The notes below the pieces were generated by a model that searched no databases, had not been told where the DNA came from, and saw nothing but the letters and a program-made list of their open reading frames with translations. The translations under genes and the position numbers were made by a program. From a virus, in the UHGV virus genome UHGV-0076293: DNA of 64,000 nucleotides; one strand, given 5' to 3'. This document shows, piece after piece, positions 22,545 to 64,000 of the stretch. Every line of letters starts with the position of its first letter. Within the stretch, counting starts at the first letter, position 1.

Positions 22545-22555
22545 TGGGGTCTCCG

Positions 22556-24746: not shown

Positions 24747-25274
24747 ATGGCATATCGCGTCGACTTAACGAAAACTCCGAAACAAATTCTGGTAGATCGT
24801 ATTAACTACGTTTTCGGGGTATCCTATACCACTGACAACATCGATTTTAACGATAAAGGTGTGCAACCACTGACAAAAGATGAAGCCCGTCGTTACGGAC
24901 TGGAATCGAAAGTGGCTGCTGACTTTAAAAACGGTGTTGCAGGGAACCAGGAATTTATCTTAACCCGTGTTGACCTGGCAACGTTCTTAGCTGACGAACC
25001 GGTTACGGTACCGAAAGGCGAAGTAACCAGCAGCCAAGAACTGGCAGACTATATCGTTGCTCAGACCGGTATTGATTTGACTGAAGACGACATTATGATC
25101 GAGCCTATCAGTGAGGAACTCGATTCTTATGATGTTCGCTTAGTCCCGAATCACTTATCTTTTAAAGGAACGATTCCGGTCGTATTTACTGACCCCACAC
25201 CACGTACGTTGGCGTCTCTCGTGACGAAACTTGCGCTGGACGGGTTCCGCCCTGGAGAATTAATCAATGTCTAA
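24747..25274 (+). CDS. hypothetical protein (175 aa)
   Basis: first ATG of the ORF, 8 nt after the upstream stop. Confidence 0.65.
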   Translation: MAYRVDLTKTPKQILVDRINYVFGVSYTTDNIDFNDKGVQPLTKDEARRYGLESKVAADFKNGVAGNQEFILTRVDLATFLADEPVTVPKGEVTSSQELADYIVAQTGIDLTEDDIMIEPISEELDSYDVRLVPNHLSFKGTIPVVFTDPTPRTLASLVTKLALDGFRPGELINV

Positions 25275-26154
25275 TGTCAAAGTTTACGACGGTAAACTCT
25301 CGACGGTAACACTTAATGCGATGCGTCTGGCTACCGCATTAATTACCGGTGCCGATGTGCAATACCCACAGAAGTCCACACTGAATGAGTTTTATAAGCT
25401 CATGCAAACTCCAGTGCCGGACGGTAAAGCACGTCCCCATTTGCAGTACATGGCGATTGGTAACCGTGGCCACATGGTCGACACATCAGATGTTGTTGCT
25501 GATGTTGTTCCTGTAGCTAAAGAACCTATCGCGTCCGGGATGTTTTCACGCGTTCCGTTTGTCCTGCGTACTAAAGACAACGATTTGTCTGATGAACAGC
25601 GTAAGAACTACGCTTTCCGTACTCTGGAAACCATCAACAAACGTGAGTATTGGGCGTACTATTTAAAACGCATTGACATGCGTGCAGTAAAAACTACCGA
25701 CTACGACATTAAGCGTGAGAACGGTGTTGAAACTGTAGAAGACTTTGTTTATACGGATACTGAACTGAACCCGGTACCGAAAGTGTTGCCGGACTACGAT
25801 TACGACGATGACGGTACCGTTGCAATTCCTGATGGCCGTTATGTGGAATCAGGCGCAGACCTGGTTATTCCGTGGACGGACTTTGACGTTCAGGAGTACA
25901 TGAACGTGACCAGCATTATGCGCGGTAGCCCTCGTAGTTCGATTATCTCTGAACTGGCACTGTGCTCTGGTTTAGACCAGGTAACGTCCGGTGACTCTGC
26001 CACAGGTTCGAAGTTCAGCTACACTGAAGCTATCGGTGTACAAGCCCTGTATTACATTTCGATGTTTACTAACCTGGCGCAGACGAACGATAAGCTGTCA
26101 CTGACAATCCGTATCGGTCAACCTGCACCGTTCTTCTTAGGGACAGCGAATTAA
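25267..26154 (+). CDS. hypothetical protein (295 aa)
   Basis: overlaps upstream stop; TAATG overlap with the downstream gene. Confidence 0.7.
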   Translation: MSNVKVYDGKLSTVTLNAMRLATALITGADVQYPQKSTLNEFYKLMQTPVPDGKARPHLQYMAIGNRGHMVDTSDVVADVVPVAKEPIASGMFSRVPFVLRTKDNDLSDEQRKNYAFRTLETINKREYWAYYLKRIDMRAVKTTDYDIKRENGVETVEDFVYTDTELNPVPKVLPDYDYDDDGTVAIPDGRYVESGADLVIPWTDFDVQEYMNVTSIMRGSPRSSIISELALCSGLDQVTSGDSATGSKFSYTEAIGVQALYYISMFTNLAQTNDKLSLTIRIGQPAPFFLGTAN

Positions 26155-29098: not shown

Positions 29099-29487
29099 TG
29101 AAACGTTTTATTACTCCCTTTCTAATGTTACTTTCGTTTTCCGTATTAGCGGATTTTAAACCTTACGATATCAGTCGTTACGAACCCGCTGTTCCTGGCG
29201 ATAAACCGGTTGTGTTTAAAGCAGGTGACCAACCCGTCACTGTGGTTCAAAACGATGAGTTTGCAGTGGTGAACTACGGCAAAACGGAGTTATGCCCTGC
29301 GGGTGGATTTTATCTGGTGAACATCAAACGTCGGACTTACCAGTTTGTTGATCCGGGTAGCTGCTCTGCAACGGTTAAGGTAACGTTAGAAACCGTACCT
29401 TACACGAATAAAAACATTAATATACAACGTTTAACCTTTTATGCGGGTGATGAAATCACAGCACGTTATCCGTTATACGGGTATTAG
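29098..29487 (+). CDS. secreted/periplasmic protein with signal peptide
   Basis: N-terminal MKRFITPFLMLLSFSVLA signal-peptide-like segment. Confidence 0.65.
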   Translation: MKRFITPFLMLLSFSVLADFKPYDISRYEPAVPGDKPVVFKAGDQPVTVVQNDEFAVVNYGKTELCPAGGFYLVNIKRRTYQFVDPGSCSATVKVTLETVPYTNKNINIQRLTFYAGDEITARYPLYGY

Positions 29488-29510
29488 TGATTAGCCCCCA
29501 CGGAGTTCGT

Positions 29511-30149
29511 ATGTCTTTTGTAATTGATTTCGACGTTGGCCACAGACAGAACTTACTTAATCTCGTTAGTTATTGTAACAGCGACAGTGTACGGAAAAAG
29601 CTTTCGGCTGAAAAGGTAGACGTTACGCTCGTCGGTGCCCCAACACCTGAAGGGCGCTATAAGGTAAAGTTAACGAACCGTAACGACATAAACGATGCGG
29701 TACTGATTACCTACACAAAGCTTCAACTGAACGACTTCCTTGAGATTCCCGCCAAGTATCTGGATTGGTTTGATTTCGAAAACGGTCAACCTAAGAACTA
29801 CGATACGTGGGCAGCTTCCGCTAAAGTCGCTGTAGAGAAAATGTGCCAAGACCGAGGTATGGTGTTATCGCGCGCTTGGGACACCGGTTCACAGTGTCAT
29901 GTTGAGTTTGACGAGTCTATCGAACGGTATGTGGTTGTTTACGAGTGCGACTCTTTTATTTATAGTGCGAGAAACCGATTCATCTTACCTCTACACTTAG
30001 GGCAGGTGATTAACGACACGACATTAGACGGTCTTAATTACAATAACGAACTGAACAAGAAACCATTGGCGGATTTGGACGGTGAGTTAGAAGTGTGGAT
30101 GGGTCAGGCGTTGGCTGAGACAGTAGTCTTAAGCGGCCTGGAAGTGTAA
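29511..30149 (+). CDS. hypothetical protein
   Basis: ATG with GGAG RBS; ORF track extends to a GTG at 29487. Confidence 0.65.
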   Translation: MSFVIDFDVGHRQNLLNLVSYCNSDSVRKKLSAEKVDVTLVGAPTPEGRYKVKLTNRNDINDAVLITYTKLQLNDFLEIPAKYLDWFDFENGQPKNYDTWAASAKVAVEKMCQDRGMVLSRAWDTGSQCHVEFDESIERYVVVYECDSFIYSARNRFILPLHLGQVINDTTLDGLNYNNELNKKPLADLDGELEVWMGQALAETVVLSGLEV

Positions 30150-45171: not shown

Positions 45172-45735
45172 GTGGCCACATCTTACGTACCTGATTTGAG
45201 TCTGACCTCAGCAGAGCTAGTGGTCGCTTTAATCAATCATGATAACGGGTTACAGCTTACGCTAAACGAAATCCGTATTAGCGGAACCGTAACAAACCCA
45301 TCACCAACAACTTCGCGTCGTAACACCATCACCGAAATCAGTAAAATCAGAAAACCGGATGGTGCGTCTGTTGTGGTCTACTACGACAGACTTGACGCCG
45401 ATGAGGTATTAACGTCTGAACCTATTTTGATTTCGTTAGACGGTACCGAAGCGATTATCCGTGACGTTCTGAGTGTTGTAAATGAACACTGCGGTACGAA
45501 CTTACAGCCTGAAGACTTACGCGTTTCTGATATTACTTCAGGTAACGATCCTATTGCCGTTAACGTTGCCGACGATTCACCTGCGTGGATGAATGCGTTT
45601 ATGGTGACGTTATTTGATAAAACTGAGCGTGCGTTAGCGAACGAAGAAGATGAAATCTTCTGCATCGGTGACGATAGCGTTCTTACCTTTGAGGTTCCAG
45701 ATGACGACTCAGCTGAAGAAAACCCGACTACATGA
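45172..45735 (+). CDS. fibre-associated protein, paralog A1 of a four-member family
   Basis: GTG start after GGAGGG; shares PDLSLTS...NHD...YYDRLDA...CGTNLQ...CIGDDSVLTF with the gene at 51471; sits directly upstream of a tail fibre gene. Confidence 0.6.
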   Translation: MATSYVPDLSLTSAELVVALINHDNGLQLTLNEIRISGTVTNPSPTTSRRNTITEISKIRKPDGASVVVYYDRLDADEVLTSEPILISLDGTEAIIRDVLSVVNEHCGTNLQPEDLRVSDITSGNDPIAVNVADDSPAWMNAFMVTLFDKTERALANEEDEIFCIGDDSVLTFEVPDDDSAEENPTT

Positions 45736-45940: not shown

Positions 45941-48900
45941 ATGGCTAAAGCGGTAAAGAAAATTCGTTTACACGATTTACGTCCATACACCGGTGATATC
46001 GGTGAAGGCGTTTTACTTTTCTCCAAGGATGAGAAAGATTATAAGTTACCAGTCCGTGAGGTTATTGCAGATATTGACACCGTACGTAATGCGGTGGCTG
46101 ATGCACAAACAGCAGCAGCACAATCACAAGAAGCTGCAACTCAGGCTACGCAAGCAAAAGTTTTAGCAGAAGCAGCAAAACAACAAACTGACACAGTTGC
46201 GGCAACGGTTGCACAACAAGCGCAAACCGTAACCGAAAAAGCAACAGAAGTCAGTACAAAACACACCGAAGTGTTAGCCGCGAAAACGGCGGTAGACGCT
46301 CAGGCTGTGTCCATTAATGAGAAAGCACAAGCGGTAGCGACAAGTGAGGCAAACGTCACACAAGCAGAAACTACCGTTACGAAGAAAGCAGAAACTGTTG
46401 CCACACAAGCCGGGCGGGTCGAACAGTCACTTACGGCAGTTAACGAAGCTGTTGCGTCGGTAGAGTCGTCGAAAGCTGCCGTAGAAGCTAAAGCAACACA
46501 AGTTACTTCAGACAAAGAAACCGCAGAGAATGCGGCAACTCGTTCTGAGGCAGCCGCTAAGCGTGCGGAAGAAATCGTTGCTCAAGGTACTGTTGATGCA
46601 ACAACGACCAGTAAAGGTGTCGTTAAACTTAATAATACCTTAACCAGTGACTCTGTTACTGAAGCGGCTACACCGTCAACGGTTAAGCAGTTAAATGATG
46701 AATTGCAGTTAAAAGCAAACCGTCACAACCCAACTTTTACCGGTGTGGTAAAAGCACCGACTCCTGCTTCGGATTCTAACGACACGAGCGTCTCAACGAC
46801 TGCATGGGTACGGCAAGCGATTGCTGAATTAGTGGACTCTTCACCCGAGACGTTAGATACGTTATCAGAAATTGCAGCCGCGTTAGGAAACGATCCTAAC
46901 TTTGCGACAACGATAACGAACCAACTAGCGGGTAAACAGCCGTTAAGTCCGTTACTGACAGCGATTGCCGCAGTCACCACCGCTGCAAACAAACTCCCTT
47001 ACTTTACCGGTAGTAATCAGGTAGGGTTAGCGGATTTCACCTCGACTGCTCGCGAATTATTAGCGAAAGGGTCGACGGCCGATATCATCAGCTTCCTGGG
47101 GTTGAAAACCACCGTTGATAAAGCTGCGGGCGCTATGCAACGTAGTTCTAACGGTGCCGATATTCCCGATAAAGCCACCTTCGCGAAGAACATCGGGTTG
47201 TCAGCAGAGACGTACCTGAAGTTTAATGGGGAGATGCCAGTAGATGCAGACATCAACACCTTCGGCCCGGTTGAAGCGTTTATGGGCGTTTGGTCTAAAG
47301 CCACGTCTACGAACGCAACAGTTGCAAAGAATTTTCCAGAAGAAAACGCAGTTGGTTGTTTAGAAGTTTTCAAAGCGGGTAACTACAGCGGAAGTCAACG
47401 TTTTACTGTACGTAACGGTAACATCTATACACGTCATCTTACTGCTGCATGGAATGGGACAAACGGTCCTTGGTCAGAATGGCGTAATGTTGCTGGTTCC
47501 GCCAGAACGTTGAACGAACAAAATAATCTGAATGACTTGGGTGGTGAGGCCGCACTAGGTGTTTGGAGAAACAGTTCGAGTACATTAGCAACAACCGCGC
47601 TGAATTATCCTGAAGAAGGCTCTTTTGCCCAGGGCGTATTAGAAGTTCTCAAAGGTGGCAACTATAGTTACACACAACGCTACACTACCCGCAGAGGCAA
47701 TGTATACGTTCGTTGTCTACAAGCCACGTGGGACGCTTCAAACCCGCAATGGGAAGAATGGCGCTGTGTTGGTCATCAATCTGTCAGCACATATTTCGAA
47801 GGCGATCTCGACACGTTAACTTCGCCTAACCGTTATAGCATTACTGATAAAGCGACAAACGTTCCTTTAATCGACGGTACTAAAATTATCGGTATCTTGG
47901 ACGTCAGTCGTCGTTTTGATAACATTAGTGTCGAACAAAAATTCACCTCGTTTGGTTCTGGGAGCAAAACTACAGGGCGTATTTTCACACGTGTATTCTC
48001 CGGTCAATCAAACGGTAAATGGAGTGAGTGGCGAGAGGTTTTCACCTCGTATTCACTTCCGTTAGTTTTAGGTATCGGTGGGGTTGCAGCTAAGGTTGAC
48101 CCGTTAGACTGGCAAACCTACGACTTCGTTCCTGGACAGATGTTAACGACGCCGTTGAACACCATGAAAAACATTCCTGCAGGAATGGATTGGGGTACTA
48201 TTGACGGTAACTTAGTTAACATCCTTGTAGGGCCGTCTGACGACACCGGTACTGGTCGGAGTATGCTGGTTTGGCGTAGCACAGTGTCTGTTGCTAACTA
48301 TCGCTTCTTTGCGGTACGTATCGCTGGTGAGAAGGGTAGTCGTACGATTACGCCGCGTCAGATGCCTGTGTTGAACGCAGCGCACACCTGGGCAGAGAAA
48401 CAAACGTTCTCTAAAGGTTTAGCGGGTGAATTAACCGGTAATGCTTCTTCAGCAACGAAACTTCAAACAGCCCGTTTAATCGGCGGCGTAAGTTTCGACG
48501 GCACCAAGGACATTGCACTCCCTGGCGTTAACGCACAAGGTACGCAGAACACCACTGGGAATGCGGCTACCGCAACCAAATTACAAACGGCTAGAAATAT
48601 CAACGGTGTGAAATTCGATGGCTCTGGAGACATCAATATCAACACCTTAGTAGGTCGTGGACGTGTCACTGCTCTGGCTGGATCAAACAAAGGTACACCT
48701 GGTATCCAGATGTACGAGGTTTACAATAACGGTTATCCGACCGCGTATGGTAATTTACTGCATTTAGGTGGTGCTACTGCCGTAGGTGAAGGTGAACTAC
48801 TGATCGGTTGGTCTGGTACCAGTGGCGCACACGCACCTGTTTATATCCGTAGTCGTCGAGACACTACAGATGCGCCGTGGTCAGAATGGGCGCAAGTTTA

Positions 48901-50257
48901 TACTGCACGAGACAGCATTCCGGGTGTCAACACCACAGGTAATCAGGATACGACCGGAAACGCAGCTACCGCTACAAAACTTAAAACCACACGTAAAATA
49001 GGCGGGGTTAATTTTGACGGAACGGGTGATATTAACCTACCAGGTGTAAACCAGCAGGGCAACCAGAACACAACAGGTAACGCTGCGACAGCGACTAAAC
49101 TCCAGACTGCCCGAAATATTGGTGGTGTGGCTTTCGATGGTACTAAAGACATCAGTTTACCTGGGGTAAACCAAACAGGGAATCAGTCAACTACGGGGAA
49201 CGCTGCTACTGCAACGAAGTTGCAGACAGCAAGAAGTATCAACAACGTACCATTCGATGGTTCGAAAGATATTACTCTAACGCCAAGTAATATCGGTGCG
49301 GCTGCCTCCTCAATGACTTGGTTAAATACCGGGGATAATGGTGCAGCGCTTAGTACAGATTCTTTTATTACTTTGTTGCAAAATAACGGGGCTTTTAATT
49401 CCAGAACTTGGATAGCCCGATGCTCTTGGGCGTATGCTCAAAATGGCGTGATTCCAGATAGTGAAACAAAGTGCGGTACTATTCCACTTGCAGGCTCAGT
49501 TATTGAAGTTGTAAGTTTTGGGATGACCAACTACACCATTCGTATCACAACCCCTACGACGACATCGGTTAGCGGAGCAAAAACCAACTCTGAGTTTATT
49601 TATTGCTATAATGGTAAAGATTATTCTCCAGGTTGGCGACGGCAGTATAACACTGTTAATAAACCGTCTGCTAGTGACGTTGGCGCTCTACCAACTGGTG
49701 GCGGTACTGTCAGTGGCGATTTGACGGTTAATGGTAAACTGGTTACGAAAAATGCCGATTTTCGAATTGCTTACGGTAGTTACGGTTTCATTTTACGTAA
49801 CGATGGCAATAGCACCTATTTCTTAGTAACAGCATCTGGTCAAGCTGCAACGGGTTCCTGGAACAACTTACGACCGATGTACTTTAGCAATTCTACCGGT
49901 CAAGTAACCTTCGGACACAACATTACCGGTAACGGCAACGGTTCGTTTAACGACGTACAGATTCGTTCTGACCGTCGTAACAAACGTAATCTGGTGAAAC
50001 TGGATAATGCATTAGACCGTTTAGAACTCCTTACCGGGTATCTGTACGAAGTTCAACATCCTGACGATGGATGGAATACTTCGGTAGGCTTAATTGCCCA
50101 GGATGCATTAGTTGCGTTACCTGAATTGGTTACTGAAGACGATGACGCTATTTCTGGTGAAAAACGTTTACGTTTGAACTATAATGGTGTTATTGCGTTG
50201 TTGGTAGAGGGTATTAAAGACCTTCGTCGTGAGCTTAAGGAACTCAAGGGGAAATAA
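45941..50257 (+). CDS. long tail fibre, T5 pb1-like (1438 aa)
   Basis: Ala/Gln/Thr-rich coiled-coil N-terminal region; five tandem GNAATATKLQTARNIGGVxFDGTKDI repeats (phage tail-fibre repeat class); C-terminal peptidase S74-type intramolecular chaperone with SDRRNK Ser-Lys motif. Confidence 0.85.
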   Translation: MAKAVKKIRLHDLRPYTGDIGEGVLLFSKDEKDYKLPVREVIADIDTVRNAVADAQTAAAQSQEAATQATQAKVLAEAAKQQTDTVAATVAQQAQTVTEKATEVSTKHTEVLAAKTAVDAQAVSINEKAQAVATSEANVTQAETTVTKKAETVATQAGRVEQSLTAVNEAVASVESSKAAVEAKATQVTSDKETAENAATRSEAAAKRAEEIVAQGTVDATTTSKGVVKLNNTLTSDSVTEAATPSTVKQLNDELQLKANRHNPTFTGVVKAPTPASDSNDTSVSTTAWVRQAIAELVDSSPETLDTLSEIAAALGNDPNFATTITNQLAGKQPLSPLLTAIAAVTTAANKLPYFTGSNQVGLADFTSTARELLAKGSTADIISFLGLKTTVDKAAGAMQRSSNGADIPDKATFAKNIGLSAETYLKFNGEMPVDADINTFGPVEAFMGVWSKATSTNATVAKNFPEENAVGCLEVFKAGNYSGSQRFTVRNGNIYTRHLTAAWNGTNGPWSEWRNVAGSARTLNEQNNLNDLGGEAALGVWRNSSSTLATTALNYPEEGSFAQGVLEVLKGGNYSYTQRYTTRRGNVYVRCLQATWDASNPQWEEWRCVGHQSVSTYFEGDLDTLTSPNRYSITDKATNVPLIDGTKIIGILDVSRRFDNISVEQKFTSFGSGSKTTGRIFTRVFSGQSNGKWSEWREVFTSYSLPLVLGIGGVAAKVDPLDWQTYDFVPGQMLTTPLNTMKNIPAGMDWGTIDGNLVNILVGPSDDTGTGRSMLVWRSTVSVANYRFFAVRIAGEKGSRTITPRQMPVLNAAHTWAEKQTFSKGLAGELTGNASSATKLQTARLIGGVSFDGTKDIALPGVNAQGTQNTTGNAATATKLQTARNINGVKFDGSGDININTLVGRGRVTALAGSNKGTPGIQMYEVYNNGYPTAYGNLLHLGGATAVGEGELLIGWSGTSGAHAPVYIRSRRDTTDAPWSEWAQVYTARDSIPGVNTTGNQDTTGNAATATKLKTTRKIGGVNFDGTGDINLPGVNQQGNQNTTGNAATATKLQTARNIGGVAFDGTKDISLPGVNQTGNQSTTGNAATATKLQTARSINNVPFDGSKDITLTPSNIGAAASSMTWLNTGDNGAALSTDSFITLLQNNGAFNSRTWIARCSWAYAQNGVIPDSETKCGTIPLAGSVIEVVSFGMTNYTIRITTPTTTSVSGAKTNSEFIYCYNGKDYSPGWRRQYNTVNKPSASDVGALPTGGGTVSGDLTVNGKLVTKNADFRIAYGSYGFILRNDGNSTYFLVTASGQAATGSWNNLRPMYFSNSTGQVTFGHNITGNGNGSFNDVQIRSDRRNKRNLVKLDNALDRLELLTGYLYEVQHPDDGWNTSVGLIAQDALVALPELVTEDDDAISGEKRLRLNYNGVIALLVEGIKDLRRELKELKGK
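48425..49295 (+). repeat. five tandem ~37-aa tail-fibre repeats inside the fibre gene
   Basis: repeated TGNAATATKLQTAR-x-IGGV-x-FDG-x-DI-x-LPGVNQ-x-GNQ units, recoded with synonymous codons between copies. Confidence 0.8.
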
Positions 50258-50260
50258 AGG

Positions 50261-50803
50261 ATGGCAGTTGTTGAAGTTCCAGGTTATATCGGTTCTTCTG
50301 CAAAGGAAGTTACTGGCGAAGAGATGATGTCTGAAGCGATGACCGAACTCGGCGTTGTCGTACCAGGGATGATGTCTGAAATGGCAGGTCTGTCAATGGG
50401 TTGCTATGTAACGTTTGAGGAGTGGACTACCGTTGAAGATGGCCTTGATGTTCGATGGATCGGTGCGTCTACTTCCGAGTGGACAGACGGCTACGGCAAA
50501 CCGGTCGTTAAAGGAAAAATATCCGGGGCGAAGATGTTTGGTTTGAATGTCGAAGCGGAGCTGATCGGAATGCACTATAAAAAGCATCCGCGATTCCCTT
50601 GGTCAGTCGAACTAAAATGTCGCTGCGAAAAAGGTAGCAATTTCAGTTATACGTTAGACGGTGTAAGCGGTTCTGTATCGAGTGATGGTACCGGTACAAC
50701 CGGAATGCAAATTCGTACATTCAAATTTAACAATTTCAGTGCAGCATTTAAGGAAAAGATAGAGCAAGTTGGTGTCAAGATGCCAACATCACGTAAATAT
50801 TAA
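50261..50803 (+). CDS. hypothetical protein, paralog X1
   Basis: N-terminal GSSAKEVTGEEMMSEA...MMSEMAGLSMGC motif shared with the gene at 50865. Confidence 0.65.
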   Translation: MAVVEVPGYIGSSAKEVTGEEMMSEAMTELGVVVPGMMSEMAGLSMGCYVTFEEWTTVEDGLDVRWIGASTSEWTDGYGKPVVKGKISGAKMFGLNVEAELIGMHYKKHPRFPWSVELKCRCEKGSNFSYTLDGVSGSVSSDGTGTTGMQIRTFKFNNFSAAFKEKIEQVGVKMPTSRKY

Positions 50804-50864: not shown

Positions 50865-51368
50865 ATGGCGGTTAACTCGGGTTGGGTCGGTTCTTCGGCT
50901 AAGAGCGAAACGGGCGAACAGTGGATGAGCGCTGCGGGTGCCAAATTGGGATTGGGTAAACCTTTTATGATGAGTCAAATGGTGGGACGATCTATGGGCT
51001 GTAAAATTTCAACTGCTGCATATAGTGATTCTTTAGGTAAGAAATGGGGTGCTGTGGGATCAAGTTGGCCATTAACTCAGAAAAATCAGGGAACCATTCA
51101 AAACGCGGGTAACTGCGGGGTGGGAACTTTAGTAGGTATAGAGTTACAATTAACGACGGTAGTTGCCAACGCAACGCCTACTCTAGCGGTCTATTTACAA
51201 GGCGGCAGGGCCTCTAACATCACTGCAAATCTAGGCGGTAACACTTGTGCGCTGACCTATCAGCAGGTTATTAATGGCCAACATTATTACTGGACCAATA
51301 ACATTAGTGCCGCGTTCCAAAACGTGATGAAATCGACCGGTACACTAAGAGATTTCAAAATTAGTTAA
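50865..51368 (+). CDS. hypothetical protein, paralog X2
   Basis: GSSAKSETGEQWMSAA...MMSQMVGRSMGC; flanked by poly-G tracts. Confidence 0.65.
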   Translation: MAVNSGWVGSSAKSETGEQWMSAAGAKLGLGKPFMMSQMVGRSMGCKISTAAYSDSLGKKWGAVGSSWPLTQKNQGTIQNAGNCGVGTLVGIELQLTTVVANATPTLAVYLQGGRASNITANLGGNTCALTYQQVINGQHYYWTNNISAAFQNVMKSTGTLRDFKIS

Positions 51369-51470: not shown

Positions 51471-51983
51471 GTGGAACAATTCACGCCAGATTTGTCGTTA
51501 ACTTCACTTAACATGGTTATTTCACTGGTTAACCATGACCTCCAACTTGACTTGCAAGAGAATGAGGTCGAAGTCAGTGACGTAAAGACCAGTGACGAAA
51601 TGGAACGTGACACCACTGCTGTTGTAAAGATAAAACGTTCTGGTAACAGAACGTTACAAATCTACTACAACCGTTTAACTGCAGAGCGGTGGTTAAACCG
51701 ACAACCTGTACTTGTAAAAGTAACAGGCGAAGGGTTTAATGCGCACGATCTAATCGAATCCATCAACACCGTTTGTGGTGCTAACTTACAAACCGACGAT
51801 TTAACCGACCAGTCGTTCACGGTGGGTAAAGACGCGGTAATATTTAGCATCGCTCCGAGTTCCCTCGGCTACAAAGGTCAGTTCTCCGTGGTGGTTTTCG
51901 GTCCAGATGAAACACCGTGTGGTATCGGTGACGATTCTGTCGTGCTAACGTTTGACAATAAAATCTTAACCTTTGGAGAGTAA
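51471..51983 (+). CDS. fibre-associated protein, paralog A2
   Basis: GTG start after AGGAGG; paralog of the gene at 45172; directly upstream of the second fibre gene. Confidence 0.6.
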   Translation: MEQFTPDLSLTSLNMVISLVNHDLQLDLQENEVEVSDVKTSDEMERDTTAVVKIKRSGNRTLQIYYNRLTAERWLNRQPVLVKVTGEGFNAHDLIESINTVCGANLQTDDLTDQSFTVGKDAVIFSIAPSSLGYKGQFSVVVFGPDETPCGIGDDSVVLTFDNKILTFGE

Positions 51984-51986
51984 TAG

Positions 51987-54119
51987 ATGAGTCAGCCAAT
52001 TGGAAAGAAGCGTATTCATGAGCTGGAAACATTTGAAGGTGAATTAGCAGGAGTCGTTCTGCTGATGTCCAAAGACGACAAAGAATATAAACTTGACGCA
52101 TCTCGTTTACAAAACGATAAGCTGTATCTAGCTTGCGGTACACCTTTTCCTAAACTAGTATTCCAAAACGATAAAACACATTACAATATTAATCCGTACA
52201 GTGACTACGACACTTATGAAGTTTCTGCAAATAAAGGTCGGGTATCTAAAGTTACTCGTGCCACATTTAGCGTGATGGCTGGGTCTTTATCGGTTGGCGA
52301 GAAAATACAACTTACAGTTACGCGCAATGGCGTACCATTTCAATTTGAAGTTACCGTATCGGGACCGCGTATCACTACTCCCACTTGGACACTTCCAGTT
52401 AATGGCGGTAAATTGAGCGTAACGCCAACCTTTGAAGTAACTGACTATCAAGCCTATCCATATACCAACACCGGTAATCAACAGACCGCTGCCAGTTGGG
52501 AAATTTCCACTAGTGAAGATTTCTCAACTACAGTTTTCCAATCACTGAACGACACCGTCAACAAAACAACCATCAGTATCCCAGAAGGTAAGTTAGAACC
52601 AGGTCAAACTTACTACGCACGTGTTCGCTTCCATAACGCAGTAACCGAAAGTGATTGGTCCGTTGTTCAATTCTCAGTCGGCGAAGCATTTATTCAGCGT
52701 CCTGCACTGATCGAACCCACCGTAGACATGGTGTTAAGCGCATCGAATATTACACTTAAAACTGATGTTTTTAAATGGGTCGGTGACGAACCTGCGGAGA
52801 CCCACGTATCGACTGACTGGCAGGTTACTTACGGTAGCAACGATTTTGACGAAATGAATAATCTCGTTAACCAATTAGAAGATGCGATTAACCTGACGTC
52901 GCTTAAATTACCGTCTGATCGGGTTTACGTTAATAACAGTTATCGTGCACGCGTGCGTTTTCGTGGTGAGAGAAGCGTCAGTGATTGGTCTGAACCTTTA
53001 ACGTTCCGTGTAAGTCGCGGGAACGTACCAACAAGTGAATTCCAGTCAATTTCTGCTTCTGGATTTACAGGTAATTCAATCGGTGCTGAGTTGGCATGTA
53101 CTGACGACGGTTTGCTGTTTGCTGCTACTGGCGTTGCACAGAAAGCGAAATTCTTACATATCTTTAAGAAAGACTTCCCGTCTTACAACAAAGTTGCCTC
53201 TTTAACAGCTGCTACTGAGGTTGACGCAGACAGAGATGGTCGCTGTCCGGTCAGTATGTCAGCCGACGGTAAGATTATTGTTGTCGGTGTTAGCGCATCT
53301 AAAGCTAACGAAGACCACGGCGAAGTTATCGTTTACCGTAACCCAGATAACGCTGAGTGGAGTACAATCAACGGAATAACTTTAGCGGGATTACCCACAG
53401 AAGGGTTCCATGGCCTTGCAGTAAAACTGTCAAAAGACGGCAATCGTTTGATTGTGGGTAACGGTACGAAAGTGCTGTCTATGTATTCCAATACCGATCA
53501 ATTTGCTACACGTACGGCTGTGTCGCCGACACTAAGTGCCGAAGACGCCACTTGTGGTGGTATTGGTAGCATTGCAATGTCTGAAGACGGTAACGGTTTA
53601 GTGCTTGGCGAAACTAACGGAACGAAATTCCACGTACTGGCTTGGGAATCGGATAGTTGGGTGTCTAAGGCATCTATTACACCAAAAGACTTGACTGAGA
53701 AAGCAACGATTAAAGTCGCTGCTTCTTCTGACTTGTCTACGATTCTTGTTTCTGTAGTTGAGACACACAAATACTACGTTTACAAGAAAACCGGTGATAG
53801 TTGGTCTCTGTTCCAAACCTTGGATTATACCGAACTGGATTACTCCATTACTTCTACCCGTTACCCGACGGGAGACATTAATGTTGCGCCTTCCGGAAGC
53901 TGGTTAATTTTCGGTATGGTGGGTTCGTTGGGTTCTATTTTCGAATTTCGTAATAGTACCTACCAACGACAAAATAGCATTTACGGCAGTAGTCTTAGCG
54001 ATCCTGAGAATTACCACTTCTATACGTCACAAGCCATCAGTGCACAAAACGATTTGTTCGTCGGTGCTGATGTTAAAGAAAGTGCTTCGTACTTCCCACA
54101 AATCAAAGTTTACATGTAA
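51987..54119 (+). CDS. second tail fibre / receptor-binding protein (710 aa)
   Basis: N-terminus KKRIHELETFEGELAGVVLLMSKDDKEYKL is homologous to the N-terminus of the 1438-aa fibre; two FN3-like units (YYARVRF...SDWS, YRARVRF...SDWS); C-terminal repeated S-x-DG-x-x-(I/L)-(V/I)-x-G beta-propeller-like blades. Confidence 0.7.
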   Translation: MSQPIGKKRIHELETFEGELAGVVLLMSKDDKEYKLDASRLQNDKLYLACGTPFPKLVFQNDKTHYNINPYSDYDTYEVSANKGRVSKVTRATFSVMAGSLSVGEKIQLTVTRNGVPFQFEVTVSGPRITTPTWTLPVNGGKLSVTPTFEVTDYQAYPYTNTGNQQTAASWEISTSEDFSTTVFQSLNDTVNKTTISIPEGKLEPGQTYYARVRFHNAVTESDWSVVQFSVGEAFIQRPALIEPTVDMVLSASNITLKTDVFKWVGDEPAETHVSTDWQVTYGSNDFDEMNNLVNQLEDAINLTSLKLPSDRVYVNNSYRARVRFRGERSVSDWSEPLTFRVSRGNVPTSEFQSISASGFTGNSIGAELACTDDGLLFAATGVAQKAKFLHIFKKDFPSYNKVASLTAATEVDADRDGRCPVSMSADGKIIVVGVSASKANEDHGEVIVYRNPDNAEWSTINGITLAGLPTEGFHGLAVKLSKDGNRLIVGNGTKVLSMYSNTDQFATRTAVSPTLSAEDATCGGIGSIAMSEDGNGLVLGETNGTKFHVLAWESDSWVSKASITPKDLTEKATIKVAASSDLSTILVSVVETHKYYVYKKTGDSWSLFQTLDYTELDYSITSTRYPTGDINVAPSGSWLIFGMVGSLGSIFEFRNSTYQRQNSIYGSSLSDPENYHFYTSQAISAQNDLFVGADVKESASYFPQIKVYM

Positions 54120-54128
54120 GGAAACGCG

Positions 54129-54689
54129 ATGAAATATGCTTATTTAAAAGACGGTAATGTGATCGACTGGAATGTTACCGAAGACATGATTGCTTTGCGT
54201 GGCCACACTGTAGATATTTATACGCCTGTAGTAGAATCTGCTAAACCGGTTGTTAACCCTGATTGTTATATCGTGTTCGAAACAACACCAAAACTGGTAA
54301 AAGGCAAGCTGGTTCAACAGTGGGTGACTGAAGCGCTGCCTAAAGAAACGGTAGTACGTAACCAGAAGGCACGTTTAGCGGAAATTCGTTATGCGAAAGA
54401 AACTGCCGGGATTACGTTTAAAGACCAAACTATTCCTACGACACGTGATGTACGTTATCAGTTAATTCAGTCTAAACACGTTGATTCTACGCAACCTATT
54501 AACTGGAAGCTAGGCGATACGTGGCTAAGTCTTACTCAGGAAGACATTGATGCGCTGCTGGTTGCAATCGCAACTTATGTTGAGAAATGCTACGCGGCAG
54601 AACGCACAGTCTCCGAGAAAATCACTAAGGTGAAAGCACCTGAAAAACTGGATGTAGAAACCTTATTTAACGACGCTTTCGCAGCGTAA
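54129..54689 (+). CDS. possible tail-fibre assembly/chaperone-like protein
   Basis: position immediately after a fibre gene; ARLAEIRYAKETAGITFKD...WKLGDTWLSLTQEDIDALL resembles tail-fibre assembly proteins; weak. Confidence 0.4.
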   Translation: MKYAYLKDGNVIDWNVTEDMIALRGHTVDIYTPVVESAKPVVNPDCYIVFETTPKLVKGKLVQQWVTEALPKETVVRNQKARLAEIRYAKETAGITFKDQTIPTTRDVRYQLIQSKHVDSTQPINWKLGDTWLSLTQEDIDALLVAIATYVEKCYAAERTVSEKITKVKAPEKLDVETLFNDAFAA

Positions 54690-59735: not shown

Positions 59736-60500
59736 ATGAAAACTATCGAATTCAAAAACAGCAACGTACGCGAGCAAGGACACATTATCACGAGCTTCCT
59801 GAAAAATTCTACACCGCATTTAGCTTATCAATTCTACGGGAACGAACTTAAGATTGCCGGTTTTGATGAAGTTGAATTAAATAAGGCAAACGAATTCATT
59901 ACCGACGTTATTGCCGACGAAGCTACCTGTTTAGTTCTGAACTTCGTTAAACCTGGAGAAGACATAAAGTCTGCCGAGAAGTTATTTATGGCAGTTTCTG
60001 AGAAACTATACGGTATCGTTGAGGTTGATAGCAATAACTATATTGTTTATTTTAAGCATTCTCCAAAGAAAAACCTCGCTAAAATCAGAGAGTTTTTTGA
60101 ACACAACCCTTCATACTGCGTAGATCTTTACACCCTCGCCTACGACGGAAAAGCACATCCTAACAACCTTATTCGTTATGACCATATTCCGCATGTACCG
60201 GGAAGATTCGAGGCTACGGAATGGTTCTTATTACACAAAGATCGGATTGCTTATTACAATTACGAAGAGATCAAAGGGATTGTAGACAAAATCAATGATG
60301 ACTACTTACAAACTCGTGAAATGTTTTGCGTGACTGTAAGAGCTAATGGTTTAACTTCATTCACTTGTGACAACCGCGTCGGTCGTCGGGTCTACGATCT
60401 GTTAATAAAGGAACTTGACAAACTTACTCCGGTAAAAGTTGGTGTTAACTATTTAAATTGGATAAAGGCGGGTTTAATTGATGAAAACTCTAAATTCTGA
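59736..60500 (+). CDS. hypothetical protein (254 aa)
   Basis: AAGGAAAA RBS. Confidence 0.7.
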   Translation: MKTIEFKNSNVREQGHIITSFLKNSTPHLAYQFYGNELKIAGFDEVELNKANEFITDVIADEATCLVLNFVKPGEDIKSAEKLFMAVSEKLYGIVEVDSNNYIVYFKHSPKKNLAKIREFFEHNPSYCVDLYTLAYDGKAHPNNLIRYDHIPHVPGRFEATEWFLLHKDRIAYYNYEEIKGIVDKINDDYLQTREMFCVTVRANGLTSFTCDNRVGRRVYDLLIKELDKLTPVKVGVNYLNWIKAGLIDENSKF

Positions 60501-60909
60501 TTTGCGTGATTACATTCGTAAATACCCAGCCAGTATTCCGGTACTGGCTTCACTCTCTTTATCGGGTATGGACCTTAATACCTTAACGGTAGAAAAATTC
60601 CACGAAGTAGTAAAATCGTCGTATCAAATTGTTACCGATATGTCAGTGCGGAAACGTGCTGACTACCCAGACGGTGATTTCGGTACAGAGATGTTCACAG
60701 ACTACGCAGTTGCGTATCTGATGGGACGTCACTTTATCGATAAACTCAATACGGCTGTAGAAGGAGAAACAGTCACGGAAATTGTCAATGCTTGGCAGCA
60801 ACGTATTGTGAGTGACGCTTACTGTCGTCAAGCCTTAAAGAAAATGTCGGCGGTAGCATTAACCAATGACCAACGTGCTTTAGAGTTCCTTAAGCACAAT
60901 TACGAATAA
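60481..60909 (+). CDS. hypothetical protein, paralog of the gene at 62097
   Basis: ATG 3 nt after a TTG used by the track; shares DLRDYIRKYP...EYPxGDFG...VxEWxxRIxSD with the gene at 62097. Confidence 0.65.
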   Translation: MKTLNSDLRDYIRKYPASIPVLASLSLSGMDLNTLTVEKFHEVVKSSYQIVTDMSVRKRADYPDGDFGTEMFTDYAVAYLMGRHFIDKLNTAVEGETVTEIVNAWQQRIVSDAYCRQALKKMSAVALTNDQRALEFLKHNYE

Positions 60910-60930
60910 TTTACCAAAAGGAAAAGTACC

Positions 60931-62034
60931 ATGTTTAATATCGAGATTACACCGCTCGTTAAAACTGAAATCCGTCCGGTTCCTGAAGCACAGTTACTCG
61001 ATCAACTTTATCGTATATTCCTGGATAAAGGTGTACATTTCCGTGCAGAACAGGTCAACGATGAAAGCATCGTGTTCTACTGGACTCACTGCAACGATTA
61101 TCTTTGCGACACTATTGCGGTGGAAATCGGTGAGTTACTCAACCCGGTAGAAACGGCCGAGACTGAACAACCGAAAGTCGATGAACAGCAGAAAGACGAA
61201 CCGCTCGTCCTCTGGTACGAAGGCGAAAAGATTAAGGATATTAAAGAGGCGTTAGAGACCTTCTATCCCGGTGATTTAGGCATTTACTGGGATAACAGCA
61301 AGCTCGTCGTTCGATTGAAGAAAGACGATCGTAACCTCATGGAAGAAGTACGTTCTATCGCCGAACTGTTCGATAACGACGCAGTTCGTCTTATTTCGTT
61401 TCATGATATCGGAAAAGAAGACGCAGATGATATCATGCGTGGTGCTGTACACGAACACAAGGGGAAAATTCGCCAGTCTAATTATGTTGACAGCACTCTA
61501 ACTGTGCTTGTTGATAATGATCCTGACGTTATTAAATGGTTCGAAGAACCGTATTCCTTTACTTACACTGGCCCAGAGGCCGAAGCGATTAATGATACCT
61601 TGACAGCTTTCTATCCTACCAAAGTAGAGACTAAACTCGAAGGTGAAAAACTCACCATTAAATGGAAATGGTGGGACGCTGCTCTCGACGAAGAAATTCA
61701 TAGTCTCATTAAAGAGATTGTTGGCAATCGTCTACGTCTTCTAACAATCACTACTATTGGGAAAGAAGATGCCGACACGCTTATGCGTGGTATCACTCGT
61801 TGGTTTCCTGAGAAAGTCCGTCAGTGGACTTACACAAACGATACACTTACCATTCTACTCAACTATGAACCCGGTATTATTGGAAAGTTAAAAACTCATC
61901 TGCGTGACTTGTGGTCAGTTCGTTTTCTTAATAATAACGAGCACTTACTCGACACGTACTTTAGAGAAATATCTTCTGGCGTAGGTTGCAACTGCCCTAA
62001 CTGTCAAAAACGTCGTCAATTAACGACTTTCTAA
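60931..62034 (+). CDS. hypothetical protein with internal tandem duplication (367 aa)
   Basis: two ~115-aa repeats, each containing IGKEDAD(D/T)(I/L)MRG. Confidence 0.7.
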   Translation: MFNIEITPLVKTEIRPVPEAQLLDQLYRIFLDKGVHFRAEQVNDESIVFYWTHCNDYLCDTIAVEIGELLNPVETAETEQPKVDEQQKDEPLVLWYEGEKIKDIKEALETFYPGDLGIYWDNSKLVVRLKKDDRNLMEEVRSIAELFDNDAVRLISFHDIGKEDADDIMRGAVHEHKGKIRQSNYVDSTLTVLVDNDPDVIKWFEEPYSFTYTGPEAEAINDTLTAFYPTKVETKLEGEKLTIKWKWWDAALDEEIHSLIKEIVGNRLRLLTITTIGKEDADTLMRGITRWFPEKVRQWTYTNDTLTILLNYEPGIIGKLKTHLRDLWSVRFLNNNEHLLDTYFREISSGVGCNCPNCQKRRQLTTF

Positions 62035-62042
62035 ATTCATCT

Positions 62043-62078
62043 AGAGGGGTGGTAAACCACCCCTCTATTATTGTATTT
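62043..62078 (+). terminator. intrinsic terminator
   Basis: AGAGGGGTGG-TAAA-CCACCCCTCT followed by a T-rich stretch. Confidence 0.75.
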
Positions 62079-62096
62079 ACCTAAAGGAGTATTAAA

Positions 62097-62528
62097 ATGT
62101 TTTTCGTATTAAAAGATGATATCCGTAACTACATTCGTAACAACCCGATTGCTCTGACTGTTTTAATAGGTTTCTGCCGCCCGAATACTGGCTTCGATTT
62201 ACTTAAGTTAGAGGAATACCAAGAGATTGTAAACACTGCCTATATGGAGATTTGCAGCTGCGGTAAACGTCCTCGTGAAGAGTATCCCGCAGGTGAATTA
62301 GGCGACTCTATGCATCGTGACCAGAATCTGATGCAGGAATTCGTTGAATACACACTGGAAAATCTTAACTATCCACTCCTGGTCGACACTGTACCAGAAA
62401 TGGTTGACGAATGGTTAAAACGTATTTATAGCGATCCTACTGCCAACAAGTTACTGAGCCAGATGTCGCAAACTTCTCGTGACATCGACACTCGTAGCCT
62501 GATGTACTTAGCACACAACGTTCGCTAA
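62097..62528 (+). CDS. hypothetical protein, paralog of the gene at 60481
   Basis: AAGGAG RBS; DIRNYIRNNP...EYPAGELG...VDEWLKRIYSD. Confidence 0.65.
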   Translation: MFFVLKDDIRNYIRNNPIALTVLIGFCRPNTGFDLLKLEEYQEIVNTAYMEICSCGKRPREEYPAGELGDSMHRDQNLMQEFVEYTLENLNYPLLVDTVPEMVDEWLKRIYSDPTANKLLSQMSQTSRDIDTRSLMYLAHNVR

Positions 62529-62535
62529 CCACTCT

Positions 62536-62580
62536 CCGCTATAGGCTTCGGTCTATAGCGGAATTAATTTTCTTTCCCTT
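62536..62580 (+). terminator. intrinsic terminator
   Basis: CCGCTATAGGC-TTCG-GTCTATAGCGG followed by a long T-rich stretch. Confidence 0.8.
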
Positions 62581-62694
62581 TTCTTTTTTGTTATTTTGAC
62601 ACCACCTTACTTACACCCTACCCGACTATTCCTATGCTGGCTGAGGGATGTAAAACGACCTCTTAAACCTTTTTACTTACTGTGAGTTAACGCG

Positions 62695-63543
62695 ATGTCT
62701 CTTACGTCAAAACAGAAACTGCTAAAACTCATCAACACTGAAAACAATATTAGTCCGCCGTTGACCTTCAGTGATGTTGATATCGGAGAGCCTACTGGTA
62801 CTGGGGTTGATACCCAGGTGGTTCTGACCTCTAAACTCAAAGGCGATGAGTCTACTACTTTAACAGTGACTTACCACCGTCGTAACTTACCTGACTACCT
62901 AACCGGTGAGTTGGTATTCGGTAACGACAGTGTGGTAACCGCATCAGATTTGCTTAATGCGATTAACGCAAAATACAACCTAAATATTTTACCCTCGGAT
63001 ATCGTTGACGCAAAAGTTGAAGGCGAAACCCATCAGCTTACCGCTAACGAGAAATCTTACGAGTGGTGCGGTGTAGTAACACTTACGCTGCGTGATCCTA
63101 TTGACCTGACTGAACTGTTACCAGTTACTCAATTAGAGAATCTGGTAGAGTATCCGTCCACTAAGAAAGGTAACGCTGCGGTTTATTCTCACCCGATCGA
63201 TTTCACCGCAGAAAAAGATTACCTTGACCCGATTACTATCAACGACACCGTAGACTTGGTCGAGTTAGCCGCTAAACTGGATGGCGTCGTTGACGAGAAA
63301 TGGGTAAGTGTGCCTAAGAACGCGACTAACAACCTGTACGGTGCGAAGGTTATTTACGATGGCCCAACCGCAGGTTACGAAGGCGCAAATACGAAGTTCA
63401 CTCGTGTGTTGGTGCTGACGCTCAGCCCGCTGTGTTCTAACCTGACAGGTAATCTGTTAATCCACTTTAACGGTACCGATCGTCCGAAGTCGAAGATTGA
63501 ATTAGCACAGACTAATCCGGTCTTACCGGGATTCTTAGATTAA
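62695..63543 (+). CDS. hypothetical protein, paralog B1 of the fibre-associated family
   Basis: N-terminal MSLTSKQKLLKLIN...TVTYHRRNL...SDLLNAINAKYNLNI aligns with the genes at 45172 and 51471. Confidence 0.65.
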   Translation: MSLTSKQKLLKLINTENNISPPLTFSDVDIGEPTGTGVDTQVVLTSKLKGDESTTLTVTYHRRNLPDYLTGELVFGNDSVVTASDLLNAINAKYNLNILPSDIVDAKVEGETHQLTANEKSYEWCGVVTLTLRDPIDLTELLPVTQLENLVEYPSTKKGNAAVYSHPIDFTAEKDYLDPITINDTVDLVELAAKLDGVVDEKWVSVPKNATNNLYGAKVIYDGPTAGYEGANTKFTRVLVLTLSPLCSNLTGNLLIHFNGTDRPKSKIELAQTNPVLPGFLD

Positions 63544-63556
63544 GAGGATTACAGTA

Positions 63557-63997
63557 ATGACCAATCAAGAAACTATCTTCGACCTTATTAAAAAGGCTAA
63601 CCCAGACGCTGAGTTCGACACCACCAAAGTCACACTGGGTGACCCGGTCGTAACCACCGGTACGTACAATACCGAAATCACAGTTGCGTCAATTAAGAAT
63701 CTCGGTTATACTAACGAACAAACGTTCCAGTATAACCGGATCGACGCAGGTTTGTATTTCCTGAACGTATTACCGAAACTGTTGGTGGAATCGGCAACAA
63801 CGACCGCTGACTTACTGCCTGTCATTAACGAGCAGTACAGCCTAACCCTTACAGAAGACGATGTATGGGTAGAGCAGGTTGGTGAGTTACCGTTAGACGG
63901 AAGCGCAATCGAACACGGTATTTTCTTCCGTCCTGAGTGTCTGACCTGGGTTGGCGGTTTTACAGTGCGAGTTGCGCGTAAACCGGCTGGGCAGTAG
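63557..63997 (+). CDS. hypothetical protein, paralog B2 of the fibre-associated family
   Basis: TFQYNRIDA...ADLLPVINEQYSLTL matches the same conserved core. Confidence 0.65.
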   Translation: MTNQETIFDLIKKANPDAEFDTTKVTLGDPVVTTGTYNTEITVASIKNLGYTNEQTFQYNRIDAGLYFLNVLPKLLVESATTTADLLPVINEQYSLTLTEDDVWVEQVGELPLDGSAIEHGIFFRPECLTWVGGFTVRVARKPAGQ

Positions 63998-64000
63998 CTA

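Follow-up and report, generated by a model that had tools for sequence, protein, structure and literature searches.

A two-gene DUF7941 locus in an SPN3US-related giant phage and its candidate role as a plug-and-socket pair

The 64,000-nucleotide stretch of UHGV virus genome UHGV-0076293 analysed here (the window) ends with two adjacent plus-strand genes, B1 (62695-63543) and B2 (63557-63997), which encode proteins of the DUF7941 family. Pfam and best-match identity define B1 as a full-length DUF7941 protein of 282 residues and as the orthologue of gp138 from Salmonella phage SPN3US, and B2 (146 residues as read) comprises the N-terminal DUF7941 domain only. The reading that we favour, with a probability of roughly 55%, is that both are virion-associated proteins that join head to tail at the baseplate and that B2 ends the chain. 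Family membership, fold, domain layout, gp138 orthology, synteny and purifying selection are established here; that the orthologue is part of the virion and that PhiKZ gp127 lies at the baseplate is known from the literature. From these we infer that B1 pairs with B2, that B2 terminates the chain and that the pair may be located at the baseplate of this phage.

The DUF7941 family, a group of virion proteins from giant phages that form a nucleus, is already known. It has a Pfam entry, was described in 2016-17 as 'Paralog family B' of SPN3US (PMC5105663, PMC5694885), was the subject of a structural study in 2026 and is the 'DUF7941 fibre cloud' family of a preprint on Escherichia phage Goslar (10.64898/2026.04.21.720040). 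The discovery value is small; B1 and B2 are members with an informative architecture and context.

Family membership

The Pfam profile PF25613 (DUF7941), which has a gathering score of 27 bits, matches B1 with 176.1 bits (E 1.4e-51) over profile positions 5-275 of 276, and B2 with 99.1 bits (E 4.1e-28). Two further genes of the window, termed A1 (68.5 bits, E 8.4e-19) and A2 (51.4 bits, E 1.4e-13), are recognised by the same profile, and all four proteins match PHROGs 1037 and 2935 ('virion structural protein'). When alignments are compared with each other by hhalign, the A-type alignment and B1 match with a probability of 97.7% (E 1.4e-12, 135 columns) and B1 and B2 with 95.8% (E 6.9e-9); the direct comparison of A with B2, which relies on very shallow alignments, is weak (42.7%, E 2.5e-4). 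By these scores the relationship of the four proteins lies far beyond chance.

A preliminary description of the window had placed B1 and B2 in one family with A1 and A2 and had made this kinship dependent on statistical support from comparisons of hidden Markov models (HMMs). The kinship is borne out by Pfam, PHROGs and hhalign. Its four paralogs are all confirmed, but the count was too low, as the sequences point to five clear DUF7941 members in the window and one probable further member. The core motifs that it quoted are all present in B1 (MSLTS..LLKLIN, VTYHRR, DLLNAINAKYNL), whereas B2 carries FQYNR and DLLPVINEQYSL and lacks 'LSLTS'.

Domain architecture and structure

The AlphaFold2 (AF2) model divides B1 into four parts, all encoded on the plus strand. 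An N-terminal globular domain, the proposed 'socket' (residues 1-135, 62695-63099), is predicted with a local distance difference test score (pLDDT) of ~85 and is followed by a disordered linker (residues 136-164, 63100-63186, pLDDT <50). The C-terminal globular domain (residues 165-260, 63187-63474, pLDDT 60-75) is moderately confident, and the C-terminal tail (residues 261-282, 63475-63540, ..RPKSKIELAQTNPVLPGFLD) is predicted to be disordered. This tail is kept in all strains of the lineage, with 20 of 23 positions identical even where B1 overall shares 81% identity. Foldseek returns a single significant match for the B1 model in the PDB, the N-terminal domain of PhiKZ gp127 (9xqd_0, E 1.2e-6, target-normalised template modelling score 0.66). 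The AF2 model of B2 is a complete, confident domain and, like the B1 model, matches only PhiKZ gp127; the window members tested share the fold of the gp127 N-terminal domain. The alignments behind the structure predictions are shallow, as near-identical relatives dominated both the single-sequence search with B1 and the profile search.

The N-terminal domain of B1 is itself an internal duplication of a ~60-residue unit of one helix plus strands, and its first and second halves match each other in hhalign with a probability of 82.8% (E 9.4e-6). Because of this duplication, two of the motif sets in the preliminary description ('..LIN' and 'DLL..IN') look alike. An alignment with SPN3US and Goslar members reveals, past the N-terminal domain, a linker motif that is conserved as L-x-G-L/F-x-Y/F-P. 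The linker of B1 aligns with this motif in a degenerate form (LTELLPVTQLENLVEYP). B2 lacks the motif in all six strains read and also lacks the C-terminal domain.

Four architectural classes can be distinguished. B1 is full length, with N-terminal domain, disordered linker and C-terminal domain. The N-terminal domain is combined with the linker motif in the fifth window member (24747-25274), in two genes that resemble SPN3US gp160 and in one that resembles gp237, and it is combined with an A-type tail (..GDD.VLTF) in A1 and A2. B2 consists of the N-terminal domain only, a variant like PhiKZ gp126. In a plug-and-socket assembly, each class would have a role that can be tested.

Beyond the window, DUF7941 comprises 3173 clusters at E ≤1e-3 in a full-library profile search. 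At least two modules per polypeptide occur in 72 of the best 150 family representatives, a ranking by total score that favours multi-module proteins. In P0196 (three modules) and P0200 (two modules), the linker motif lies between successive N-terminal domains. Natural proteins of two to three modules with the motif between them give independent, indirect support to head-to-tail chaining.

A conserved two-gene locus

B1 and B2 are co-directional and separated by a gap of 13 nt. A GAGG Shine-Dalgarno-like sequence lies 9 nt 5' of the B2 start codon, and the opposite strand holds no overlapping open reading frame (ORF) of at least 60 residues over the pair. Upstream of B1, a pattern scan and RNA folding identify a terminator-like hairpin on the plus strand (62535-62562) with a 12-bp stem, a UUCG loop and a subsequent T-rich tract. 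Its predicted fold of -20.2 kcal/mol (z -4.96) is equalled by 0 of 200 shuffles, and the hairpin is conserved in the relative L005 (8978-9005). The hairpin closes the upstream gene, which implies that B1 begins a new transcription unit. No sigma-70-like promoter was found by pattern scan on the plus strand 5' of B1, which says little, since such phages use their own RNA polymerases. Scans of 60000-64000 gave no Rfam family and no notable repeat.

The pair is conserved in five relatives. Ratios of nonsynonymous to synonymous substitution rates (dN/dS) between strains are 0.06-0.11 for B1 and 0.015-0.09 for B2, and both genes are under strong purifying selection. Their identities fall in parallel across strains (97.5/98.6%, 91.5/90.9% and 81.2/81.1% for B1/B2), and the gene upstream of B1 has a strain-divergence pattern unlike theirs.

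What lies downstream of 63997, a question raised in the preliminary description, is answered by relatives, as the contig itself ends at 64000. The gene order was read in L005, L010, L012 and a record from E. coli 98232, all of them complete or long. In all four, B1 (282 residues) is followed by B2 (148-165 residues), a terminator-like hairpin and a GH108/PG_binding_3 endolysin gene; the pair is flanked on both sides by terminator-like hairpins. The endolysin gene is followed by a DUF1353 gene, a gene for a 171-residue protein, a minus-strand gene and two short DUF7941 genes (176-180 residues), and last come a minus-strand DUF4376 gene and two radical-SAM genes. The region 3' of B2 is collinear with SPN3US gp156-gp164. 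The two short DUF7941 genes are orthologues of SPN3US gp160 (E 2e-40) and also match Goslar gp23. A long SPN3US-like tandem array 3' of B2 was considered and rejected, as the complete relatives carry only B1 and B2 and then the endolysin.

Comparison with SPN3US, PhiKZ and Goslar

The best match of B1 is SPN3US gp138, with 46% identity over the full length. The flanks are arranged in the same order, with a gene of ~143 residues upstream and the counterparts of gp156-gp164 downstream. B1 and B2 occupy the position at which SPN3US has 17 consecutive paralogs (gp138-gp154). With two genes at this locus instead of 17, and eight clear members genome-wide, the lineage shows a minimal family size that points to core members. 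In contrast to gp138, B1 has the conserved 22-residue C-terminal tail. The SPN3US array also has no member that consists of the N-terminal domain only; the nearest relative of B2 is the N-terminal domain of gp141, which is itself full length. SPN3US gp138 is present in virions at low abundance (13 unique peptides, mass-adjusted spectral count 1.20, near the 12-copy portal), and gp141 and gp160 are very abundant (PMC5105663, PMC5694885). By analogy with its orthologue, B1 is likely to be a low-copy and not an abundant protein.

In Pseudomonas phage PhiKZ, gp127 (290 residues, full length) is followed by gp126 (147 residues, N-terminal domain only), an arrangement that resembles the likewise adjacent and co-directional B1 and B2 (282 and 146 residues). 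The family profile matches gp127 with an E-value of 2.5e-30, B1 and gp127 find each other reciprocally (E ~1e-9), and no window protein other than B1 matches gp127. The relation extends to the C-terminal domain of B1, which phmmer aligns with gp127 residues 131-290 (E 6.3e-6). Sequence identity to gp127 and gp126 is only 15-20%. In the PhiKZ structure solved by cryo-electron microscopy, one gp127 is located at the outer end of each gp139 baseplate band (PMC13250141).

In Goslar, the full-length gp22 (297 residues) and the short gp23 (180 residues) adjoin gp24, an endolysin of the COG3926/GH108 type, and in the lineage of the window B1 and B2 adjoin a GH108 endolysin. Goslar gp23 keeps the linker motif and corresponds not to B2 but to the two gp160-like genes located ~3 kb past the contig end. 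The best Goslar match of B1 is gp33, not gp22. The Goslar virion is reported to contain ~580 copies of gp22 and ~2140 copies of gp23, purified gp22 forms filaments in vitro, and AlphaFold predicts a head-to-tail docking in which the linker of one subunit lies on the N-terminal domain of the next (10.64898/2026.04.21.720040). In the same preprint, an AlphaFold head-to-tail dimer of PhiKZ gp127 and gp126 fits density that is unassigned in the PhiKZ map.

A plug-and-socket model for B1 and B2

The unit of the family is the ~140-residue N-terminal domain, termed the 'socket', to which most members add the flexible linker as a 'plug' and the full-length members add a C-terminal domain. In published models, the linker, with or without the C-terminal domain, docks onto the N-terminal domain of the next subunit, and the chain starts at the baseplate rim. 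Applied to this phage, B1 and B2 would be made together from one two-gene transcription unit, and the linker and C-terminal domain of B1 would bind the N-terminal domain of B2, as modelled for gp127 and gp126. B2 could be bound but has no plug of its own and would thus end the chain. In favour of this model are the family and fold results, the pair arrangement common to PhiKZ, the parallel divergence and constraint of B1 and B2, the hairpins on either side, the detection of gp138 in virions and the multi-module proteins. A suggestion in the preliminary description, that the family is a separately evolving adhesin scaffold, comes near the published filament model; the solved structure places only PhiKZ gp127, at the baseplate periphery.

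Five observations weigh against this model. The linker motif of B1, the supposed plug, is degenerate. B2 does not match PhiKZ gp126 at E-values up to 1. PhiKZ gp127 and gp126 directly follow the gene of the wedge protein gp128, whereas B1 and B2 lie beside the endolysin, 38 kb from the gp128 homologue (22544-24739), and the place 3' of that wedge gene is held by the fifth DUF7941 member. All members of Paralog family B in SPN3US, gp138 included, have been assigned to the head (PMC5105663, PMC5694885). Finally, baseplate maps of Goslar show no DUF7941 density, and the 'fibre cloud' is a model put forward in a preprint (10.64898/2026.04.21.720040).

An extension of the model is tentative, and we would not expect it to hold. 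In this extension, members with the N-terminal domain only (B2, PhiKZ gp126) would be dedicated chain terminators that set the length of the assembly, and the conserved peptide of B1 (..NPVLPGFLD) would act as a second 'plug'.

Head or baseplate

The location of DUF7941 proteins is genuinely disputed between the head (SPN3US) and the baseplate (PhiKZ, Goslar). If the SPN3US proposal ('Head', 'Head ejection?') is transferred to this phage, B1 and B2 would be head proteins that are either placed on the surface of the capsid or neck or packaged and ejected. The SPN3US assignment was made because the family was found in tailless 64_112(am27) particles: gp138-154, gp83, gp160 and gp237 were all detected in such particles after CsCl purification (PMC5105663, PMC5694885). 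In favour of this reading, B2 has in four of five relatives a short Lys/Arg-rich tail that could bind DNA. However, the only family member in a solved virion structure, PhiKZ gp127, is located on the outer baseplate (PDB 9XQD), and the family members lack the prohead-protease processing that is listed for other head proteins in Table 1 of the SPN3US work. The criterion also placed SPN3US gp83 in the 'Head' class, even though the genes on either side of it encode the wedge and the spoke. In addition, purified Goslar gp22 forms long filaments by itself, and phage-nucleus and PhuZ material was carried along in the Goslar preparation, which makes co-purification of family B with tailless heads plausible. 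Both views could be reconciled if self-assembled filaments were purified along with tailless heads. We consider a head location of B1 and B2 unlikely, and keep the plug-and-socket pair at the baseplate as the preferred reading.

The conflict is testable in this lineage. With two genes in place of 17, and with cultured strains of E. coli and Enterobacter that carry it as a circular element of 222 kb, it would offer a minimal and tractable system for the question of head versus baseplate.

A-type genes and the fibre loci

The preliminary description regarded the family as a possible fibre adaptor or assembly factor. This is reasonable for the A-type subtype and does not extend to B1 and B2. A1 (45172-45735, plus strand) encodes a 187-residue protein with the N-terminal domain and an A-type tail (..CIGDDSVLTF..) and is the orthologue of SPN3US gp122; A2 (51471-51983, plus strand) encodes a second A-type protein of 170 residues. 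As had been stated, both directly precede fibre genes: A1 lies directly 5' of fibre 1 (45941-50257, 1438 residues), and only 3 nt separate the A2 stop codon from fibre 2 (51987-54119, 710 residues). The distance of B1 and B2 from this locus had been given as 10 kb; B1 actually starts 8.6 kb past the end of the second fibre gene.

Both fibres begin with an anchor module that is recognised by a module HMM (45941-46111 in fibre 1 and 51987-52157 in fibre 2, plus strand). The module spans ~57 residues in fibre 1 and has a conserved part of ~45 residues with the pattern ..KK.R.H.L......G......L..SKD.KEYKLP... Among the 411 ORFs of the window, the anchor HMM matches only the two fibres (E 4e-26 and 1e-26), and in SPN3US, JN03, pEa_SNUABM_29 and L005 the module occurs only in the gene directly 3' of an A-type gene. 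At every locus examined, the protein encoded there begins with this module, however its remainder is built. The bodies of the genes in this position vary by strain and include a 1438-residue T4-like fibre, a 710-residue protein with immunoglobulin (Ig)-like and propeller domains, proteins of 206 and 161 residues and a 706-residue SASA esterase, whose N-terminus lies outside the locus read, so that the anchor module is unchecked there. A constant A-type gene with freely exchanged bodies downstream is what one would expect if an adaptor or chaperone were paired with receptor-binding proteins that can be swapped. Virion mass spectra of SPN3US contain the products of the downstream genes, gp123 and gp124, but not gp122 (PMC5105663, PMC5694885); for the A-type proteins, the adaptor and the assembly-factor readings therefore both remain.

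A role of this kind for B1 and B2, in fibre attachment or assembly, is improbable, more so than a place in the head. In its favour, they share a family with A1 and A2, some Goslar members fuse the DUF7941 module to carbohydrate-binding, glycosidase or leucine-rich repeat domains (10.64898/2026.04.21.720040), the long proteins of PHROGs 30606 and 3589 carry the module at their N-terminus, and the longest module-bearing representatives reach 2908 residues. Against it, B1 and B2 have no anchor module downstream; that module is confined to genes directly 3' of A-type genes, and in all complete relatives B2 is followed by the GH108 endolysin and not by a fibre. Both proteins lack the A-type tail, and fibre accessory proteins are encoded elsewhere in the window, by two Gp38_N genes and one DUF4376 gene. 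T4 gp38 and gp57A and the Tfa proteins of Mu and P2 (DUF4376) offer a loose analogy only, that of a small gene beside a fibre gene; it applies to A1 and A2 only, and these proteins have no sequence or fold similarity to the DUF7941 genes.

The slot after A2 is occupied by the 710-residue Ig-plus-propeller protein in the window and L010, by a 206-residue protein in L005 and by a 706-residue SASA/DUF6645 esterase in L012, and it is empty in E. coli 98232. It looks like a receptor-binding cassette that is swapped while the A-type gene in front of it is conserved. In fibre 1, a T4 Gp34 trimerisation domain occurs together with an intramolecular chaperone of the Peptidase_S74 type at the C-terminus. 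It is followed by two genes with the N-terminal domain of the T4 Gp38 adhesin (Gp38_N; 50261-50803 and 50865-51368), and the DUF4376 gene, a separate fibre accessory protein, is found at 54129-54689. Parts of T4-type long fibres are thus grafted onto a phage of the PhiKZ type.

The contig end and the C-terminus of B2

The exact B2 sequence occurs on one metagenome contig of 93,365 bp in ENA, from sample ERZ1742067, and the contig end is the window end. The window agrees with its relatives through 63989 (..VRVARKPA); the last 11 nt of window and contig (63990-64000, plus strand), which include the TAG stop codon of B2, match none of the five relatives. The stop codon, 3 nt short of the contig end, is unreliable as read, and the length of 146 residues may reflect either true variation or an artefact of the contig end. 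Relatives carry a hypervariable tail of 5-22 residues past the domain; it is rich in Ala, Pro and Lys and, in four of the five relatives read, has a short Lys/Arg-rich end. Six distinct versions of the tail, of 4-22 residues, are found when the window's own is included. The metagenome contig breaks exactly where this tail starts, probably because of strain heterogeneity. Whichever its true end, B2 is by its sequence an N-terminal domain only.

The view that B2 has no function of its own, being what is left of a decaying full-length paralog or a contig-end artefact, can draw on the position of the stop codon, the unmatched last nucleotides, the full length of its closest SPN3US relative gp141 and the hypervariable sequence past the domain, but it is largely refuted and highly improbable, given an N-terminal-only gene (148-165 residues) at the same place in every complete relative, the low dN/dS of B2, its complete and confident AF2 domain and the same architecture in PhiKZ gp126.

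The phage lineage

The window forms the last part of a metagenome contig that derives from a giant phage of enterobacteria, ~222 kb in size and related to SPN3US. The major capsid protein shares 76-80% identity with its counterparts in Seoulvirus and Erwinia giant phages, and homologues of the PhiKZ wedge and spoke proteins are encoded as well. A megablast search of 60000-64000 against a phage collection returned nothing, so the lineage has no DNA-level match there. Gut metagenomes often contain near-identical genomes of 218-228 kb, and so do assemblies of Salmonella, E. coli and Shigella isolates. A complete circular 'plasmid' record of 221,873 bp comes from E. coli 98232, a urine isolate (NZ_CP173450.1), and a ~222-kb circular 'plasmid' record of the lineage is also found in Enterobacter ludwigii (NZ_CP134650.1). 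These records suggest stable carriage of a PhiKZ-like phage in the isolates, as a carrier state or pseudolysogeny.

Further DUF7941 genes

The fifth member of the window (24747-25274, plus strand) emerged when the 411 ORFs of all six frames were scanned locally with an HMM. It encodes a protein of 175 residues with the N-terminal domain and the linker motif (..LALDGFRPGELINV) and is matched by PF25613 with 51.4 bits (E 1.4e-13). The gene lies between the homologues of the genes for the PhiKZ wedge gp128 (22544-24739, 731 residues, E 1e-81) and spoke gp139 (25267-26154, 295 residues, E 3e-34), which is the position of SPN3US gp83. By this order, the fifth member is the gene best placed to encode a baseplate-anchored subunit. 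The C-terminus of the wedge protein (..INDLDGFTLDQLPK) resembles the family linker motif and was also considered as a DUF7941-type 'plug' that would anchor the product of the next gene, but this was rejected as unsupported, with a linker HMM E-value of 0.8; the four-residue core of INDLDGFTLDQLPK occurs 8 times in 19,361 residues, and PhiKZ gp128 lacks it.

A gene at 29487-30149 (plus strand, 220 residues, PHROG 10571) is probably a strongly diverged sixth member. A richer family HMM matches it in two collinear segments (E 8e-4), and hhalign aligns it collinearly with the DUF7941 N-terminal domain over 149 columns (E 0.0056, with a probability of only 6.6%). It has no match in Pfam and carries a canonical linker motif (VINDTTLDGLNY). 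A whole-record HMM scan of the E. coli 98232 record yields eight clear DUF7941 genes and a marginal ninth; 20-21 are counted in SPN3US, 10 in Goslar and three in PhiKZ.

Spaid-like proteins of Spiroplasma are reported to carry DUF7941 (PMC13375240). Together with half-module repeats, they make the preprint claim that the module is restricted to chimalliviruses too strong. Two long Asn/Lys-rich proteins, P0202 and P0216, contain about ten repeats of ~73 residues that match half of the DUF7941 N-terminal domain. P0202 carries an N-terminal hydrophobic stretch, and Mollicutes-like repeat proteins match half-modules as well.

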